Source: an uncultured Gammaproteobacteria bacterium
Lineage (GTDB): Bacteria; Patescibacteriota; Microgenomatia; Woykebacterales; RBG-16-39-9b
Assembly (NCBI GenBank): GCA_964367355.1
Contig: CAYIWY010000005.1
Location: 19,133 to 83,132, forward strand
DNA length: 64,000 nt
Direction: 5' to 3'
The position numbers were made by a program, and so were the translations under genes. Under the pieces are notes generated by a model. It was not told where the DNA came from. It saw only the letters and a program-made list of their open reading frames with translations, and did no database searches. Shown here piece by piece: positions 3,430 through 32,896 of the stretch. Every line of letters begins with the position of its first letter. Position 1 is the first letter of the stretch.

Positions 3430-3945
3430 TTAGTCGGAGATTTCAATCTTATTGCCAATCTCAACAGTGTTTTTTTCAGAAAACCCAGCGTTTACTTCCA
3501 GAACGTTGGTTACTTCTTTTGGAGATCTGAAGGTTGGAATATTATTCGGGTCTTTGGTAACAGGGCAGTTTTTGTCGATTCCAACTATTACTCCTCTATC
3601 AATCCAGATAATATCGATCGGAAAACGCATATCTTTCATCCAGAAAGTCGAAAAATCCCTGACAGGAAGTTCAAAGTACATACCAAAACCAATCTCAAGG
3701 GTACTTCTATTTGAGAGCCCTAAAGAAAGTTCTTGTCCGTAACTAGCAACTTCTACAGTTAGTTTAATTGGTTTTTTATCGCTTGAACTACTTAGTATCT
3801 CAGCTTGTTTTCTCTTTAGGCCACTGTTTCTGATTGGTGTCTCAGATTGTTGCAGCGCACTAAAAATTACTGCAAAAATCAAGGCAATGCAGATAAAAAT
3901 TACAAAATATTTCAATTTAAAAAGTTTCTCCAAGTAATATTTCAC
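3430..3945 (-). CDS. DUF192-family protein with N-terminal signal/TM
   Basis: 171 aa; FWMKDMRFPIDIIWID matches DUF192 (COG1430) core. Confidence 0.55.
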   Translation of the reverse strand: MKYYLEKLFKLKYFVIFICIALIFAVIFSALQQSETPIRNSGLKRKQAEILSSSSDKKPIKLTVEVASYGQELSLGLSNRSTLEIGFGMYFELPVRDFSTFWMKDMRFPIDIIWIDRGVIVGIDKNCPVTKDPNNIPTFRSPKEVTNVLEVNAGFSEKNTVEIGNKIEISD

Positions 3946-3968
3946 TTGAATTATAGTAATATCATTTC

Positions 3969-4544
3969 ATGGATAAAAAGACTATACGATATTTAATTTT
4001 AGGGTTAATTTTCTTGTTCTCAATTGTTTTTTCTTATTTTAATGATAATCAAAAAAATCCAAGTTCGAAATCAACCACTTCAGGTGTATCTCAAGTTACT
4101 GATAAACAAACTTATTTAGTTACCAAAGTCGTTGATGGTGATACGATTGAAATTGAGGGTGGGCAGAAAGTTCGCTATATCGGGATTGATACTCCAGAAA
4201 CAGTTGATCCAAGAAGACTGATCGGTTGTTTTGGCAAGGAGGCCTCGGCGAAAAATAAAGAATTAGTTTTAGGCAAAAAAGTGCGGTTAGAAAAAGATAT
4301 TTCCGAAACTGATAAATATGGGCGGCTGCTGCGCTACGTTTATTTACCTGCCGACAAGGCAGGTGTTGGTGATAGTTTTATTAACAAGTATTTGGTAGCA
4401 GAGGGTTTTGCCAAAGCTTCTTCTTATCCGCCGGACATTAAATATCAGGAAATATTTCGTGCTACTGAGAAGTCCGCGCGTGAAAGTAAAAAGGGTTTGT
4501 GGGGAAGATGTTTTTCAGGTAATTTGCAGTTTGTTCTAGTTTGA
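3969..4544 (+). CDS. secreted thermonuclease (staphylococcal nuclease-like, SNase fold)
   Basis: 191 aa; N-terminal TM/signal; VVDGDTIEI...VRYIGIDTPE hallmark of micrococcal-nuclease family. Confidence 0.75.
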   Translation: MDKKTIRYLILGLIFLFSIVFSYFNDNQKNPSSKSTTSGVSQVTDKQTYLVTKVVDGDTIEIEGGQKVRYIGIDTPETVDPRRLIGCFGKEASAKNKELVLGKKVRLEKDISETDKYGRLLRYVYLPADKAGVGDSFINKYLVAEGFAKASSYPPDIKYQEIFRATEKSARESKKGLWGRCFSGNLQFVLV

Positions 4545-4552
4545 CTCTCTTG

Positions 4553-4568
4553 ACTTGTTCGGACAAGT
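4553..4568. promoter_or_regulatory. perfect 16-nt palindrome ACTTGTTCGGACAAGT overlapping the -35/spacer of the dinB promoter (-35 ttgact 4550-4555, -10 tataat 4575-4580); candidate repressor operator
   Basis: palindrome read directly; position typical of SOS-type operator. Confidence 0.35.
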
Positions 4569-4586
4569 TTCGGGTATAATATATAT

Positions 4587-5804
4587 ATGATTGCCCGAGC
4601 TTCCTGGATGCATTTGGACATGGATTGTTTCTTTGCATCGGTAGAAATTAAATTAAATCCGTCTCTCAAGGGTAAACCGGTTGTGGTTGGCGGTGTTAAT
4701 CCCCAGGGGAAAAATGTTCCCCGCGGTGTGATTGCCACTGCTTCTTACGAAGCCCGTAAATTCGGTTGTAAGAGTGGTATGCCGCTCTTTAAAGCACTGC
4801 AGCTTTGTCCGGATGCAATCGTCGTTGGTGGGCACTACGAGGATTACATCGATTGTTCTGACCAGGTGATGCAGATCGCTGCAAGATACGCTCCCAAAGT
4901 CGAGCAGATCGGTATTGATGAGGCTTTTTTAGATTTCTCAAATACTGAAATACTTTACCCCGATTTAAGAATAGTTGCTGAAAAAATTCGGGCTGATATT
5001 AAAAAAGAAATCGGGATAACCGCTTCGATTGGCCTAGCGGCAACTAAAGTCGCGGCTAAAGTTGGCAGCGATTTTAATAAACCGGATGGTTTTACTTATG
5101 TTAAGGAGGGAACAGAAAAATCATTTCTCGCTCCCCTACCACTACGTGATTTACCTGGGATTGGCTATAAAATGGAAGAATATTTCCACAACCTTGGAGT
5201 GACAACTTTAGGACAATTAGCCGCTGTACCTTTCAAAAAAATCGAAAACTGGGGCAAGTTTGCCATTAACCTTTGGGAAGCAGCCAATGGTGTTGACAAC
5301 ATTTGGTTTCATCCCAGTGCAACAGTGAAATCAATTTCCAGAAGCGAAACTTTTTATAAAGATACGCCGGATGAAAATTTTATTTTGGCAATGCTAAGAA
5401 AGTTAACTGAAAGTGTTGGAACCGAAGCTAGGGCTGAGGGTTATTTCGGTCGAACGGTCCACCTCACGATTCGCTACAAAGATTTTCGGACGGTTTCCCG
5501 CCAGCGCGTCCTGACTAAACCAACCAATGTCACCAAAGAGATTTACGATCTTGGGGAAATTTTATTAAAAGAACTTTGGGACAGCAAAACTCCGTTGCGT
5601 TTGGTGGGAATTGGTTTAACTCAGTTTGGTAGTGAAATAACTCAACTGTCTTTGTTTGACCAAGCTCATGACAAGCGGTTGGAACTGGAGAAACGCATCG
5701 ATTGTTTAAGAAAGAAGTATGGTATGCAAGCCGTTAATCCTCTTGCCTTGTTATATTTAGATCCGAGTGTCAGACAATTTAAGGGTAAAGCGTTTTATAC
5801 TTGA
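4587..5804 (+). CDS. dinB: DNA polymerase IV (Y-family)
   Basis: 405 aa; MHLDMDCFFASVE start motif and overall Y-family pattern. Confidence 0.9.
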   Translation: MIARASWMHLDMDCFFASVEIKLNPSLKGKPVVVGGVNPQGKNVPRGVIATASYEARKFGCKSGMPLFKALQLCPDAIVVGGHYEDYIDCSDQVMQIAARYAPKVEQIGIDEAFLDFSNTEILYPDLRIVAEKIRADIKKEIGITASIGLAATKVAAKVGSDFNKPDGFTYVKEGTEKSFLAPLPLRDLPGIGYKMEEYFHNLGVTTLGQLAAVPFKKIENWGKFAINLWEAANGVDNIWFHPSATVKSISRSETFYKDTPDENFILAMLRKLTESVGTEARAEGYFGRTVHLTIRYKDFRTVSRQRVLTKPTNVTKEIYDLGEILLKELWDSKTPLRLVGIGLTQFGSEITQLSLFDQAHDKRLELEKRIDCLRKKYGMQAVNPLALLYLDPSVRQFKGKAFYT

Positions 5805-5844
5805 CTACTCGAACCAGAACAATCTAATATAACCTATATTACAA

Positions 5845-6438
5845 GTGTCTGACACAAGTGTGAGAAATAATAGAAATTTTCAAATAAATTCTGTTCACCA
5901 CCTTATTACAAAAGGCAATAACCAAGATATATTTCTTGACGATCGTGATTTCAACCGGTATATCTTTAGCCTAAGGAAATTTTCTAAGAGATTAAGTGTA
6001 AGGATCTTAGCCTTTTGTTTAATGCCAAACCATGTTCATATACTTGCCAGGCAAGATTCGGAAATAAGCTTATCTAAATTTATGCAGACTCTTTCCACTG
6101 CATATGCCAACTATTTCAATACTCGCTACAAGCGACAGGGCCATCTTTTCGAAGCTAGATTCAAGAATATTGAGGTTACTACCGATGAATATTTAATTCA
6201 CTTGAGCAGATACATTCATCTCAACCCCTCTAGTTCCCAAATAGTGCAAAGTCCGCAGCATTATAAATGGGGTAGTTACAAGCACTATTTAGGGAATGGT
6301 AGTTTAGATTTTATTGACGAGAGAATTATTCTTGCTTATTTTTCCAAAGACAATCCCAGAAGGGATTACCAAGAGTTTGTTGAATCAAGAATTGAATATC
6401 AAAAAGACATTAGCTTGCAAAAACTATTACTAGAATGA
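5845..6438 (+). mobile_element. IS200-like Y1 transposase / REP-associated tyrosine transposase (RAYT)
   Basis: 197 aa; LMPNHVHIL...YANYFNTRYKRQGHLFEARF (HUH plus Tyr motifs). GTG start overlaps palindrome GTGTCTGACAC (5846-5856); near-copy GTGTCAGGCAC at 6453-6463 downstream. Confidence 0.7.
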
Positions 6439-6491
6439 ACTTATAGTTCAAGTGTCAGGCACCCGATTCTAAATGTATTTGAAAAATTGAG

Positions 6492-27825: not shown

Positions 27826-28425
27826 ATGCTAAAAAAATTGCTACTTTTCACCTTCGCGATATTAGTAATTTTAACAATTGGCATAGTTGTGTTTAACCCA
27901 ATTGAGAGAATGCGTGAATCGCGTGATACAACCAGAGTCAATGATTTAACCTCCATAAAAAAAGCGATTGATATCTATATTAACAATAACGCTAAAGATA
28001 TTGCTGCCAATCCTGGATTACTTTGTTCAAACTGTAGTGTCGGAAAAGAAGTCTTTTCCTACCGTTCAATCAAACTTATAGTATCAGTGTCAGACACTGG
28101 TCTAACAACCGTCGAAAAGCATAGTCTCTATGTTAATGCTACTGGTTGGCTTCCGCTCGATTTAGCCCGTAACGCTAGGCTTGGACAGACTCCACTGAAG
28201 GTTTTGCCGCTTGACCCGCTGGAAAAAGGTTACTCTATTCGCACCAAACTACCATTTTTTAGCAAAGAAGAAAACTTTGTCTACACTTATACTGCCGGAA
28301 TCGACAATAAATATAAACTAACTGCTAAGTTGGAGAGTAAAAAAGGCCTCGAAAAAGCAAAAAATGATGGTGGGACGCTCGATGATCGGATTGAAGTCGG
28401 GACAGATCTGACACTTAAACCATGA
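27826..28425 (+). CDS. membrane-anchored pilin-like/hypothetical protein
   Basis: 199 aa; N-terminal TM followed by RDTTRVNDLTSIKKAIDIY resembling a pseudopilin helix, but no G-F-T-L-I-E motif; contains REP palindrome at 28086-28098. Confidence 0.4.
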   Translation: MLKKLLLFTFAILVILTIGIVVFNPIERMRESRDTTRVNDLTSIKKAIDIYINNNAKDIAANPGLLCSNCSVGKEVFSYRSIKLIVSVSDTGLTTVEKHSLYVNATGWLPLDLARNARLGQTPLKVLPLDPLEKGYSIRTKLPFFSKEENFVYTYTAGIDNKYKLTAKLESKKGLEKAKNDGGTLDDRIEVGTDLTLKP

Positions 28426-28697
28426 TTAGGTCGTTTTGTTTTGTCTCGCTTAACGCAATGCGCGTAAAGCGGATTAAAACCGCCGTTGGATTAGTCAGCG
28501 TCAAGAAAATTGAGTTTTGTAAACTGGTTCCGAAGGAAAATTTTTCAACTGTTTGACGCTTCTTTGAAGAGGAGTTTTGGAAAATTAAGTGAACAAAACG
28601 AGATTTTTAGCTGGAGGATCCAAGGCGGCAGTTTGGTTCAACCTTTGCTGTCAAAGGTTGCAATAAATAAGAAATTGATTAGAAATTAGTTAAAGCA

Positions 28698-28761
28698 TAA
28701 TACTTGACGCTTGATACCTGATACCAGTCGCTTGATACTTGACACATGATACTTGATACCC
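28698..28761. repeat. degenerate tandem array of T(T)GA(T/C)AC units (six or more copies) spanning the pilD start codon
   Basis: atacttgacgcttgatacctgataccagtcgcttgatacttgacacatgatacttgataccc; inverse copy (gtatcaag) plus tandem 14-mer at 29681-29711 on the other side of pilD. Confidence 0.6.
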
Positions 28762-29648
28762 TCTTTATTATATTTATCTTTCTTTTCGGTGCCGCCATCG
28801 GCTCATTCTTAAACGTAGTTATTCTTAGACTTCACTCAGGTAGAACCCTCGGAGGCCGTTCGCAGTGCCCACACTGTCACCACACGCTGGCAACGCTTGA
28901 TTTAATTCCAATCCTAAGTTACCTATTATTATCGGGCAAATGCCGCTATTGCGGCCATAAATTGTCGATCCAATACCCGTTGGTTGAGCTGACCGCAGCG
29001 ATCTTGTTTACAATCGCTTTTCTCTCTTGGGGTCAGGCCGCCTTTGGGTGTCAGACACTCATCCCCCAGTGTCTGACACCGGTCAATCTTTCATCTTTAA
29101 TCTTTAATCTTTTCCTCGTTTCAGTTCTAATCGTCATTTCAGTTTATGATCTTAAGTGGGGTCTGGTTCCCGATAAAATAATACTACCAGCTAGTGTAAT
29201 TGCCTTTGGATATCAATTATTAACCTTTGTCATTGCGAGTGTAACGAAGCAATCTAATTTGTCATCTCGAGGACTCTTAGACGAGAGATCTCAAGGATTT
29301 CTCTCTTCGTTCGAAATGACACTTTTACCCAATCTATTCACTGCCTTTGGTATTGGCTTATTCTTCTTTCTAATAATTCTTTTCACAAAAGGCAAAGGCA
29401 TGGGAGGCGGAGACTTTAAACTAAGCATATTTATAGGACTTGCCTTAGGTTGGCCGCTAGCCTTGGTCGCTGTCTTTTTGGGTTTCTTGACAGGTGCCTT
29501 GGGGGCTGTTATGCTTATATTGTTAGGCAAGAAAAGCTTCAAGCAAACAGTTCCTTTTGGACCGTTTTTAGCTTTAGGAAGCTTGCTTGCAATACTAGTA
29601 GGAAACCAGATTTTGGAATTATATCTGAAATCTATGGGGTTAAAATAA
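28746..29648 (+). CDS. pilD: prepilin peptidase (A24 family) PilD, with in-frame repeat-element insertions
   Basis: 300 aa; CPHCHH...CRYCGHK zinc motif; catalytic Asp in VYDLKWGLVPD and GMGGGDFK; extra segments GCQTLIPQCLTP (29047-29080 palindrome pair) and KQSNLSSRGLLDERSQGFLSSFEMTLL (29261-29321 element). Confidence 0.85.
   Translation: MILDTLFIIFIFLFGAAIGSFLNVVILRLHSGRTLGGRSQCPHCHHTLATLDLIPILSYLLLSGKCRYCGHKLSIQYPLVELTAAILFTIAFLSWGQAAFGCQTLIPQCLTPVNLSSLIFNLFLVSVLIVISVYDLKWGLVPDKIILPASVIAFGYQLLTFVIASVTKQSNLSSRGLLDERSQGFLSSFEMTLLPNLFTAFGIGLFFFLIILFTKGKGMGGGDFKLSIFIGLALGWPLALVAVFLGFLTGALGAVMLILLGKKSFKQTVPFGPFLALGSLLAILVGNQILELYLKSMGLK
29047..29080. repeat. inverted pair of the 11-nt REP palindrome GTGTC(A/T)GACAC inside the pilD ORF
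   Basis: ggtgtcagacact-catcccc-cagtgtctgacacc; same 11-mer flanks the RAYT gene (5846-5856, 6453-6463) and occurs at 28086-28098. Confidence 0.7.
29261..29321. repeat. about 60-nt imperfect palindromic element (MITE/RPE-like), copy A, in-frame inside pilD
   Basis: gtcatctcgagga...gacgagagatctc...cgttcgaaatgacac; second copy at 29737-29796. Confidence 0.65.
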
Positions 29649-29736
29649 ATACATGTTACACTCTGCCCGAGCGTTAAATAGTATCAAGAATCATGAATCA
29701 AGAATCATGCTTTTGGTACTTTCTTTTTTTTCCTAT

Positions 29737-29796
29737 GTCATCTCGAGGAATATTTTGACGAGAGATCTCTCACTCGCCTACTCGTTCGAGATGACA
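29737..29796. repeat. about 60-nt palindromic element, copy B, in the pilD to pilin intergenic spacer
   Basis: gtcatctcgaggaatattttgacgagagatctctcactcgcctactcgttcgagatgacac; preceded by tandem 14-mer atcaagaatcatg(a/c) twice (29684-29711). Confidence 0.65.
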
Positions 29797-29882
29797 CCTG
29801 TTTTCAATTCTGAATTCATAATTGGTACAAATATAAGTCAGCTTATAATTCATAATTCAAATCTGAGAGGGGGTGAGAACGT

Positions 29883-30329
29883 ATGACGGAAAAACTTCGC
29901 TCTCACTTAAAGACTGAAAAGGGTTTTACCCTGATCGAACTGTTGGTCGTAATCGCGATTATCGCTATTTTAGTCGTCATCGTCTTGGTAGCTATCAATC
30001 CATTACAACGAATTAGGGACGCTAATACTCGATCTGCTGGATCTAGTGCACAACAGATTGGAACAGCTACAGCTGCTTGTATAACAAATAGTCTACAAAC
30101 ACTGTCTTTGGCCGCTTCCATAGCTGCTTGTGACGCAACCCCTTGGTCCGAAATGGCTAATTATTCAAACCTATCAGCTCTACCTACGGGTACAACCGTT
30201 GCTGCTATTACGACCGCAGCTGTCAACACAGATATCTGTGTTACATCTACAGTCGGTAACGGAGATCCGCAGTACTTCACATACCTTCGAGGTAGTGTTA
30301 GTGGTACAGCGTGTCCAGCTTCGACCTAG
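29883..30329 (+). CDS. type IV pilin (class III signal peptide, GFTLIEL)
   Basis: 148 aa; KTEKGFTLIELLVVIAIIAILV prepilin motif; strong SD gagggggtgag upstream. Confidence 0.85.
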   Translation: MTEKLRSHLKTEKGFTLIELLVVIAIIAILVVIVLVAINPLQRIRDANTRSAGSSAQQIGTATAACITNSLQTLSLAASIAACDATPWSEMANYSNLSALPTGTTVAAITTAAVNTDICVTSTVGNGDPQYFTYLRGSVSGTACPAST

Positions 30330-31867: not shown

Positions 31868-32101
31868 ATGCCCAAAATTTCTCCAATAGATTATCGTATA
31901 TTAATAAAAATACTTGAACATGAAGGTGCAGTTGTTGTTGGCCAGAAAGGTAGTCACATCGTGATGACTAAGAAAGGTGCAAAACGTCGTTTGGTTATCC
32001 CATCTTATAAACAACTACCAATCTTCATCATTTTAAATAATTTAAAAACAGCGGGTATAAGTCGAGATCGATACCTGGAACTGTTAGATAAGTTAAATTA
32101 A
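31868..32101 (+). CDS. hicA: HicA-family mRNA interferase toxin (YcfA-like)
   Basis: 77 aa; GQKGSHIVMTKKGAKRRLVIPSYKQLPIFIILNNLKTAGIS fits the GSH-x-F-Hp...vP-H-K...G-Tl...IlkqaG pattern. Confidence 0.6.
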   Translation: MPKISPIDYRILIKILEHEGAVVVGQKGSHIVMTKKGAKRRLVIPSYKQLPIFIILNNLKTAGISRDRYLELLDKLN

Positions 32102-32130
32102 ATTTCCACTCCCGGAGTGGAAATTTAAAA
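32101..32130 (+). terminator. rho-independent terminator after hicA
   Basis: perfect hairpin aatttccactc-ccgg-agtggaaattt followed by A/T-rich run. Confidence 0.5.
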
Positions 32131-32218
32131 AGGTAGGTGCATAATACTTGATTGGTCAGAGTTGATACTCTATAATGAAGTTAGACATTATGAGTTTCTT
32201 AACGATATAATTTACGTA

Positions 32219-32896
32219 ATGAGTTCTGCTCAACTCCACTCTAATCCAAAAATCTCTCAATCAGGCCAAGGAATACTTGAGGTAATTGTCACTATTGGCA
32301 TTGGGACAATTATGATTATGGCTCTGGTCGTGCTGTCGGTTCGAACCAACCGTTCGAGTGACTTTTCCAAAGCTTCTTCCCAAGCTTCCAGTCTCGCCTC
32401 CGAAGGGATTGAAATTATTACAAATCTTAAGGAGATGAATGGTACTACCCCAGGGGGAGTTAGATTATTCACATTAGATGACATTGCCTCTTGTACTGGA
32501 AACAGCTCAAATTTACGAAGTTGGGATGATTTGTTTGGAATAGACATTAATGATAATATTTCTTGCCCAGCAGGTTCTCATGGAAGAGTTGGTTACATAA
32601 TAGAACCATCGTGTAATGATGTGACTAACACGACTTTTAACTGTATTTCATTTCCAACAGCAAATCCAGCCCTAGGATCTGAGTTGGTCGACACACGGAC
32701 TTATATTAGAGAAGTTTTTATCGCCGATACTCCGGTTAGTTCTACCCCACCTGGGAAAAGTAATTGCAACACAAACGATGACACAGATCCAAATGTTGGA
32801 GATTGGGATAACATTAAACAATTTGCAGTTGTAGTTAGTTGGACAGATTCTTCCGGTTCGCACAACCAAACTCAAACAACCTGTTTACAAAGATGA
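32219..32896 (+). CDS. minor pilin/pseudopilin
   Basis: start at internal Met; SQSG|QGILEVIVTIGIG gives Glu at +5 after a Gly cleavage site. Confidence 0.55.
   Translation: MSSAQLHSNPKISQSGQGILEVIVTIGIGTIMIMALVVLSVRTNRSSDFSKASSQASSLASEGIEIITNLKEMNGTTPGGVRLFTLDDIASCTGNSSNLRSWDDLFGIDINDNISCPAGSHGRVGYIIEPSCNDVTNTTFNCISFPTANPALGSELVDTRTYIREVFIADTPVSSTPPGKSNCNTNDDTDPNVGDWDNIKQFAVVVSWTDSSGSHNQTQTTCLQR

Follow-up and report, generated by a model that had tools for sequence, protein, structure and literature searches.

Two unrelated palindromic repeat families, probably inserted and tolerated as coding sequence, within the gene for prepilin peptidase in a CPR bacterium from groundwater

The 64,000-nt stretch of DNA analyzed here (contig CAYIWY010000005.1, positions 19,133 to 83,132 of the forward strand; hereafter the window) belongs to a groundwater bacterium of the Candidate Phyla Radiation (CPR) and carries a gene for type IV prepilin peptidase, pilD, whose open reading frame (ORF) runs uninterrupted through palindromic repeats. 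This raises the question of how such sequences came to lie inside the coding region of a membrane protease, and how the gene tolerates them. We put at roughly 80% the probability that two unrelated families of repetitive extragenic palindromic (REP) elements became inserted into pilD and are tolerated there as coding sequence. Within this analysis, the reading draws on the repeats themselves, the families to which they belong, their presence or absence in orthologs, the intact ORF, and a confidently predicted core fold, each documented below. The gene and its repeats, with positions counted in the window, are as follows:

28746..29648, plus strand: pilD, type IV prepilin peptidase, 300 amino acids (aa), an intact ORF with three repeat-derived in-frame segments
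29047..29080, plus strand: REP hairpin, a REPIN-like inverted pair of the 13-mer GGTGTCAGACACT with an 8-nt loop, encoding GCQTLIPQCLTP
29229..29254, plus strand: solitary TGTC-tagged unit GTCATTGCGAGTGTAACGAAGCAATC, with TGC/GCA as stem triplet and TGTAA as loop, 3 nt upstream of the next element
29260..29322, plus strand: copy 1 of the 60-nt element, a 63-nt imperfect palindrome and tags-outward dimer of TGTC-tagged REP units, encoding LSSRGLLDERSQGFLSSFEMT
29736..29797, plus strand: copy 2 of the 60-nt element, 62 nt, without the central hairpin, in the pilD-pilin spacer before the major pilin gene (29883..30329)

The product of the hairpin forms residues 101-112 of PilD, in the loop between transmembrane segments 2 and 3 (TM2 and TM3). 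Its arms (29047-29059 and 29068-29080) are 13 nt each and 100% complementary across the 8-nt loop; it is among only three perfect hairpins with a stem of at least 11 bp in the window, and as RNA it is predicted to fold at -23.6 kcal/mol (z = -4.6). The core of the repeat, GTGTCWGACAC, is found at six sites in the window when up to one mismatch is allowed, against an expectation of 0.37; no shuffle out of 100 gave as many. Half of these sites (three of the six), with the 11-13-nt core of the 34-nt hairpin, lie on both sides of a gene resembling those of REP-associated tyrosine transposases (RAYTs), 23 kb from pilD. This gene and the further REP-like sequences are listed below:

5766..5778, plus strand: REP unit AGTGTCAGACAAT, upstream of the RAYT-like gene, in the 3' end of the ORF at 4587..5804
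5844..5856, minus strand: REP unit TGTGTCAGACACT, adjoining the start of the RAYT-like gene
5845..6438, plus strand: RAYT-like Y1 (HUH) transposase gene, Pfam Y1_Tnp, E = 1.1e-14
6451..6463, minus strand: REP unit GGTGCCTGACACT, 13 nt past the stop codon of the RAYT-like gene
28086..28098, plus strand: single REP-like 13-mer AGTGTCAGACACT, within the 199-aa ORF at 27826..28425 and kept in the orthologous genes of contigs L002 and L001

The best NCBIfam model for the RAYT-like gene is REP_Tyr_transpos, with 65.1 bits (IS200, 26 bits). REP systems are defined by a RAYT gene bordered by the repeat that it presumably mobilizes (Nunvar et al. 2010, PMC2817692). The initial annotation had called the hairpin a REP inverted doublet, a description upheld by the occurrence of its core on either flank of this gene, whose product is the likely mobilizer of the GTGTCAGACAC REPs. 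As in REP systems and in REPINs, the latter reportedly the subject of work by Bertels and Rainey, the unit occurs both singly and as an inverted pair and flanks a Y1 HUH gene. It differs from them in being 11-13 nt long and itself palindromic, in the sub-cut-off score of its RAYT (see below), and in having two of its four loci inside genes, whereas REP systems usually exceed 100 copies per genome and are mostly extragenic. A further difference is the lack of a GTAG tag; neither GTAG nor CGTC adjoins the units of the 34-nt hairpin, so that in the usage of Di Nocera et al. (PMC3733652) it counts as an "untagged" REP. The lone 13-mer AGTGTCAGACACT may date from an old insertion, or may be coding sequence with a chance resemblance. 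The REP unit at 5766-5778 falls in the final 13 codons of the ORF at 4587..5804, which is 405 aa long and from its sequence may encode a Y-family (DinB-like) DNA polymerase; the unit may have reshaped the C-terminus of that protein.

The second family accounts for the 63-nt palindrome, which encodes residues 172-192, within the TM4-TM5 loop and between Asp135 and Asp223, and for the solitary unit upstream of it. A covariance model (CM R1), built from 30 copies of the 60-nt element in other genomes, recovers copy 1 with 63.3 bits (E = 3e-15) and copy 2 with 47.3 bits (E = 8e-11), both on the plus strand, and finds nothing else significant in the 64-kb window. The minus strand of copy 2 folds at -31.2 kcal/mol (z = -6.9). 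A regular expression for the TGTC unit gives three matches in the window and none in 200 Markov-simulated windows, and all three units carry the tag TGTC. The solitary unit is likewise in frame, as part of FVIASVTKQSN (residues 161-171), and is an addition to the initial annotation. That annotation had described a pilD ORF that stays open through two repeat-derived segments, the second an imperfect palindrome of about 60 nt between the two catalytic Asp motifs, with a related copy before the major pilin gene; the 300-aa ORF, the hairpin at 29047-29080, the palindrome at 29260-29322 with its 21 residues, and the CM R1 scores of the two copies agree with it on each of these counts.

The two families in pilD (29047-29080 and 29260-29322) share their end pentamers, TGTCA at the 5' end and TGACA (then C) at the 3' end. 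These common ends raise the possibility that the window RAYT could act on both.

Alignment of the window PilD with 30 orthologs identifies both insert segments as extra loop sequence relative to most of them. The protein matches the Pfam domains A24_N_bact (E = 2.5e-30) and Peptidase_A24 (E = 1.1e-10), the latter in a match broken into two stretches. Deleting the 21 residues of copy 1 raises the Peptidase_A24 score from 42.3 to 56.9 bits and restores one contiguous match (positions 1-102 of 104), in keeping with the extra loops that had been predicted from the sequence. Deletion of the REP segment has no effect on the domain match because this segment lies between the two domains. The orthologs most informative about the two elements, with their identity to the window PilD, are:

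L002 (P0003), 81%: REP hairpin present and nearly identical; 60-nt element absent, also from the pilD-pilin spacer
L001 (P0002), 78%: REP hairpin absent; 60-nt element present
L003 (P0004), 74%: REP hairpin absent; 60-nt element present
L082 (P0005), 67%: REP hairpin present; 60-nt element absent, with a REP hairpin in loop 2 instead
L083 (P0006), 68%: REP hairpin present but decayed; 60-nt element absent
L084 (P0012), 58%: variant hairpin GGGGTCAGACCCT/AGGGTCTGACCCC; 60-nt element absent

Close orthologs thus have either element, both, or neither, and on a rough neighbor-joining tree the distribution of the inserts is patchy. The hairpin behaves as a mobile REP or REPIN would, being found in L002, L082, and L083 and not in L001 or L003, and its presence in both loops of L082 shows an independent second insertion there. 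In L084, the changes relative to the window hairpin are compensatory in both arms. The L003 copy of the 60-nt element has lost its fold (z = +0.64) and is still in frame, a decayed sequence homologous to the solitary unit at 29229-29254 is present in L001 and L003, and copy 2 is absent from the orthologous pilD-pilin spacers of L002 and L084. The initial annotation had named conserved, native segments in orthologous PilD proteins as a refutation. Some orthologs do share the segments, but the patchy and mutually independent distribution of the two elements argues for gain and loss and not for native sequence.

Two more distant PilDs of Patescibacteria have palindromes unrelated to the window elements at the same two loops. 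In the PilD of L090 (gene 201-1067), loop 2 contains a palindrome with 15-nt perfect arms, and loop 1 contains a 14-nt unit, CCACCCTCTACTTT, four times in tandem within the ORF. In that of L089 (gene 201-1064), loop 2 has a palindrome of the GCCCAAGGC/GCCTTGGGC type, with 25-nt arms that are 80% complementary, and loop 1 reads similarly. Such examples mark the loops as recurrent landing sites, colonized by at least four palindrome families across lineages.

How, then, does PilD accommodate the inserts? Their lengths, 36 and 63 nt, keep the frame; three of the six frames are open in each element, and the one used in pilD is free of stop codons. D135 (in VYDLKWG) and D223 (in GGGDFK) are invariant across the 31 aligned PilD sequences, and the window protein retains all 46 family-invariant positions, including both Asp residues and four Cys. 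The same 300-aa protein, 100% identical, occurs on seven contigs from independent assemblies in ENA and Logan, one of them Hain_H52_01um_R3_63, from Hainich groundwater well H52. No second pilD was found within the 64-kb window, and this one stands in a complete-looking type IV pilus cluster comprising pilB, pilT, pilC, the 199-aa gene, pilD, several pilin genes, pilM, and pilO. The protein is probably made and active despite the inserts.

An AlphaFold model of PilD, built with the ortholog alignment, has a mean predicted local distance difference test (pLDDT) score of 89.1 and a predicted template modeling (pTM) score of 0.86. The only 10-residue blocks averaging below 80 pLDDT are 101-110 (68), 171-180 (64), and 181-190 (59), which are the inserts. 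A Foldseek comparison of the model with the PDB returned no meaningful match and hence no structural support for the topology. Lysine and arginine counts are 0 and 2 in the insert loops, 5 in the loop with the Cys4 motif, and 2 and 2 in the loops on the Asp135 and Asp223 sides. In prepilin peptidases such as PilD and TcpJ, the Cys motif and the catalytic Asp residues lie on the cytoplasmic side. Taken with the positive-inside rule, this would place both insert loops outside the cytoplasm, opposite the active site.

The 60-nt element extends far beyond this gene. An exact scan of species-representative genomes with its 22-nt core, GTCATCTCGAGGA-N(4-12)-GAGAGATCT, returned 76 stretches, often with many copies per genome. 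By record titles, these span about seven phyla and include Omnitrophota, Planctomycetia, Synergistaceae, Syntrophaceae, Desulfocapsaceae, and other Deltaproteobacteria, as well as Alpha- and Gammaproteobacteria, Bacteroidota, and Patescibacteria (Saccharibacteria, Roizmanbacteria, and Levybacteria). Both units, with tags outward, are present in 70 of 86 pattern hits, including a 3' half (...GATTTCTC...TCGAAATGAC) that the pattern did not demand. CM R1 recognizes about 100 sites in 77 loci, and the genomes in which the family was found number roughly 30.

Each unit consists of a (T/C)GTC tag, an 8-position stem (AT-NNN-GAG / CGA-NNN-AT) enclosing a loop, and a CTN tail. Stem positions 6-7 form a conserved tandem G.A/A.G mismatch, so that the eight positions contain six Watson-Crick pairs. 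The stem triplets are of seven types and are Watson-Crick complementary in 223 of 235 units. Among the same 235 units, GTC follows a T in 202 cases, a C in 22, an A in 8, and a G in 3 (TGTC 86%, CGTC 9%), and the tail reads CTC in 142, CTA in 30, CTT in 26, and CTG in 15. In canonical copies the loop of the 3' unit is 5 nt (CTTCG), while that of the 5' unit is about 11 nt with a mini-hairpin of the GCGAAGC type, and many copies in other genomes have long variable hairpins nested in the unit loops. A rod or four-way-junction fold, with an outer and a central stem, would pair 91% of cells compared with 95% for unit hairpins; it was rejected because substitutions in L016, L042, and L072 (and in L063 and L071, as read from the sequences) are compensatory for the unit hairpin only.

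Across 100 sites, we found no orientation bias with respect to neighboring genes, as called crudely from ORFs ("<E<" 21 versus ">E>" 19). This lack of bias, together with placement in spacers, is behavior of the REP type or of the bacterial interspersed mosaic element (BIME) type. In an Omnitrophica contig (L037, MHFI01000009, 1937-7395), six copies, each on the gene strand, fill intergenic spacers in a nuoA-B-C-(TPR)-D-E operon, 10-60 nt past the stop codons. In a delta proteobacterium (L022, CAWCTI010000017, 243-4713), seven copies on one strand, about 570-850 nt apart, lie between toxin-antitoxin modules (HigB/HTH, ParE, and DUF4258), an array that resembles a cassette array yet has no attC core sites. 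Contigs of one metagenome-assembled genome (MAG), JBDRAP01 (L006-L079), contain about 30 copies with a common conserved central hairpin of about 45 nt, each with a 25-nt partial duplication of its 5' unit (ACAACCTCGAAGAGTACTCGACCTT) ahead of it. A half element consisting of the 5' unit only is found in a Patescibacteria MAG (L043, JAHJRZ010000034, ~2330-2389), with a pilin gene (MRNGIKRSKGFTLIELLVVIAI) about 60 nt downstream of it, an echo of copy 2 upstream of the major pilin gene in the window.

The family also enters coding sequence elsewhere. In two gammaproteobacterial MAGs (L038, 6931-7947, and L023), a 75-nt TGTC dimer lies in frame, on the antisense strand, and splits a GHMP_kinases_N domain match that becomes contiguous once the 25 insert residues are deleted. 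Residues ~118-160 of the L038 kinase (...VIDPRMRASMTEG) also look like a repeat and may be another in-frame insert. An aldo-keto reductase in L072 was considered as a second such case and set aside as ambiguous, its deletion bringing no gain in score.

Other identities for the 60-nt element were considered. At the Rfam 15 gathering score, the window and 19 loci gave tRNAs only, and the sub-threshold matches were generic hairpins. GAAA and GUC are suggestive of a hammerhead or other small ribozyme, but the CUGAUGA core and an Rfam match are lacking. An integron attC site came into consideration because the L037 and L022 arrays run in the same orientation at gene-length spacing; it was rejected, as the element ends in TGTCAT...ATGACA and has no AAC/GTT core sites, and the L037 array is a nuo operon and not a series of cassettes. 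A tblastn search of contigs L001-L079 with the window RAYT found only a chance-level match (E = 0.59) and hence no RAYT linked to the family, and no parent insertion sequence with matching ends, such as a miniature inverted-repeat transposable element (MITE) would have, was seen in the 64-kb window or the 8-kb loci. BLAST of the canonical element against plasmid and phage collections gave no match, a metagenome scan with a 21-mer of the minimal form gave three chance matches that the covariance model did not recognize, and literature searches with the element sequence or peptide strings gave only irrelevant matches, e.g., to cyanobacterial internal transcribed spacers.

The closest counterpart among known repeats is the superfamily of CGTC-tagged REPs, mostly inverted dimers, described by Di Nocera, De Gregorio and Rocco (2013, BMC Genomics 14:522, PMC3733652). 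Its members are recognized by the tag, with TGTC and CCTC as variants, an 8-9-bp stem starting A-T, T-A, a loop of 4-5 nt, and the tail CCA; the tag is "changed to TGTC ... in many repeats", dimers inside known genes encode 20-30 residues, and the superfamily has no known dedicated transposase (PMC3733652). The 60-nt element shares the tag, the A-T/T-A stem start, the 8-position stem, a short tail, and the inverted dimer arrangement. It too is intragenic and is not known to flank a transposase gene of its own, the window RAYT being flanked by the other repeat. The peptides have a similar flavor: SSRGLLDERSQ...FEMT in the window may be compared with the REP-encoded SFRGEAVEPGIQ...RGND and WMPGTRPGMT, which Additional file 3 of that study gives together with VIPGLDPGIH...GRVKPGHD (PMC3733652). 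These published peptides would back-translate to GTCAT...ATGAC elements with tags outward, like the window element. Differences lie in the conserved tandem G.A mismatch of the stem, in the 11-nt loop of the 5' unit with its GCGAAGC-type mini-hairpin, and in the long hairpins nested within copies from other genomes. Whereas the published hosts are Proteobacteria, Chlorobi, Bacteroidetes, Spirochaetes, and Thermotogae (PMC3733652), the 60-nt family reaches Patescibacteria, Omnitrophota, Planctomycetota, Synergistota, and Desulfobacterota. On the basis of architecture, we file the element as a TGTC-tagged member of the CGTC superfamily.

This assignment bears on the comparison with Rickettsia palindromic elements (RPEs) that the initial annotation had drawn. 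RPEs are carried in frame by housekeeping genes unrelated to one another and fall in exposed regions of the encoded proteins (Ogata et al. 2000, reviewed in PMC10969869). The pilD inserts are likewise in frame in a conserved gene, outside its conserved core and in loops that are probably exposed, and leave the ORF open, and the element at a given hotspot varies among orthologs. The CGTC superfamily includes CGTC-1 and CGTC-4 of R. conorii, which are RPE-6 and RPE-4, alongside the dRS3 repeats of Neisseria (PMC3733652), so that the comparison holds; ATGAC is a signature of RPE-4, -6, and -7 in an analysis of R. japonica (PMC3767692), with which the GTCAT/ATGAC ends of the 60-nt element agree. 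Through this shared architecture, the kinship of the element to RPE-4 and RPE-6 would be closer than an analogy. By contrast, RPE-1 to RPE-3 are about 100-150 bp with a conserved peptide, the pilD elements are 34-63 nt, and their host, a CPR bacterium of groundwater, lives freely or as an episymbiont and is not an obligate intracellular alphaproteobacterium. The accompanying statement that in-frame palindromic elements are rarely reported elsewhere was mistaken: well over a hundred intragenic REPs are listed, from many species (PMC3733652).

Some likeness to BIMEs is apparent as well. In E. coli these consist of Y- and Z-type REP pairs, inverted around a variable linker, and the 60-nt element similarly combines two slightly different inverted unit types around a variable central linker, with copies in operon spacers elsewhere (six in the Omnitrophica nuo operon). 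It differs in its unrelated sequence and in the intragenic position of window copies.

Judging from what is known of REPs and RAYTs, the most likely course of events is that the window RAYT would have copied the 34-nt hairpin into the TM2-TM3 loop via hairpin-forming single-stranded DNA (ssDNA). The TGTC units, that is, the 63-nt dimer and the solitary unit, would have reached the TM4-TM5 loop by the route of CGTC-type REPs, with a sister copy in the pilD-pilin spacer, and selection would have kept only in-frame, stop-free copies located in loops. The inserts may persist because they passed three filters: a length that keeps the frame, a stop-free frame, and short loops that are probably extracytoplasmic.

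Several observations weigh against insertion and tolerance as described. The 65.1 bits of the RAYT-like gene fall under the 80-bit NCBIfam equivalog cut-off, and the REP core occurs at just four loci in 64 kb (two intragenic). The empty site of the 60-nt insert is not clean, in that the entire loop differs from that of L002, and no target-site duplication is visible here, at copy 2, or at the REP hairpin. Copy 1 differs at only 2 of 63 nt between the window and L001, in a flanking gene that is about 75-80% identical, and such high conservation could reflect constraint or gene conversion instead of neutral tolerance. The tail of the 60-nt family is CTN and not the CCA of the CGTC superfamily, membership of which rests on the text and supplementary peptides of PMC3733652 and not on alignment with its Figure 2 consensus.

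Part of this evidence could be read differently, namely that the hairpins were selected for a function in the pilD-pilin transcript, as RNA stabilizers, partial terminators, or pause sites setting the ratio of peptidase to pilin, with coding as an incidental consequence. Both window copies of the 60-nt element are sense-oriented, copy 2 separates pilD from the pilin gene and is closely followed by a promoter-like site (29822-29849), the half element in L043 is just upstream of a pilin gene, and the element is better conserved between the window and L001 than the flanking gene. REPs are moreover mostly transcribed, lying between unidirectional or convergent genes (PMC3733652). Set against this are the lack of orientation bias across 100 sites, the L003 copy that is unfolded though in frame, and orthologs that have the same operon without either element. 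We regard a transcript function as unlikely, though it overlaps with tolerated insertion rather than excluding it. More speculative, and rather doubtful, is the idea that the TGTC dimer is a structured ssDNA or RNA element recognized by a widespread host or mobile factor, and that its capture in PilD loops provides selected variation of surface-exposed pilus machinery (e.g., against phages or host defenses in episymbionts). It derives from the identical 22-nt core, the conserved unpaired nucleotides, and the co-varying stems across about seven phyla without a linked transposase.

If pilD were decaying or inactive, an open frame through the inserts would be a transient state only, and a load of three repeat-derived segments in a 900-nt gene is indeed heavy. 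We nevertheless consider this quite improbable, as the gene has no stops or frameshifts and keeps every invariant position, the 60-nt insert is open in three diverged orthologs (74-78% identity), an identical allele is present on seven contigs, and the gene is the only pilD in its complete-looking pilus cluster. Palindromes can confuse assemblers, and the Logan contig L081 departs from the window upstream of ~28477; chimeric joins or other artifacts of metagenome assembly are nonetheless barely credible given the identical gene on seven ENA and Logan contigs and the elements in diverged orthologs from other samples. The same-position segments of orthologs (the 60-nt element in P0002 and P0004, the hairpin in P0003, P0005, and P0006) might suggest native, lineage-specific PilD loops that are palindromic by accident, with copy 2 as a chance match. 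We regard this as refuted, since the same sequences turn up elsewhere than in pilD (next to the RAYT gene, within the spacer, and across 76 stretches from unrelated genomes), the elements are distributed independently among close orthologs, and covariance model E-values run from 1e-10 to 1e-15.

If REP insertion tolerated as coding sequence is the correct reading, the phenomenon itself is a known one, intragenic REPs having been described for a family that includes RPE-4 and RPE-6. What is new is the instance in a CPR bacterium, the cognate RAYT for one of the elements, the repeated settling of different palindromes in one and the same pair of PilD loops, and a host range for the TGTC/CGTC-tagged family that, by record titles, is much wider than reported. 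Selfish palindromes of the REP type, including the transposase-less CGTC/TGTC type, would thus be active in the small genomes of CPR bacteria (Patescibacteria), and REPs may remodel an essential membrane protease without breaking it. The two loops would be permissive sites, useful for protein engineering and for topology models. For annotation, there is a warning in that domain matches are broken up by palindromic inserts, which also give rise to lineage-specific "loops". Finally, the core, near-identical across many phyla, supplies a definite sequence and a covariance model for finding the factor that would mobilize or bind the TGTC family.

Several smaller features surround pilD. The gene is flanked by short, mutually complementary repeats, upstream at 28695-28760 (three overlapping copies of the motif form GCTTGATACTTGACAC) and downstream at 29681-29709 (two tandem copies of ATCAAGAATCATG; also at 32139-32168). 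Their arms are 38-44 nt, 75-79% complementary, and about 920-960 nt apart; they may serve as promoter or operator repeats, or mark the ends of something. In L001, L003, and L084, the 199-aa gene adjoins pilD and the 320-nt spacer that precedes pilD in the window (28426-28745) is missing, and in L002 its position (3754-4758) is occupied by a toxin-antitoxin-like pair (DUF433 and DUF5615/Mut7-C). In L081 (1-731), the identical pilD has another upstream context, with a ribosome recycling factor gene and a breakpoint near window position 28477 at AACCGCCGTTGGATTAGTC. At 32098-32128, upstream of the ORF at 32162..32896, lies TTAAATTTCCACTCC-CGG-GAGTGGAAATTTAA, a perfect palindrome of 14 bp around a 3-nt loop; it is related to neither REP family. 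Just 3' of the pilD stop codon (29660-29671), the 12-mer ACTCTGCCCGAG is identical in the window, L002, and the far more distant L084, while the remaining spacer diverges; it is possibly a processing or regulatory site.

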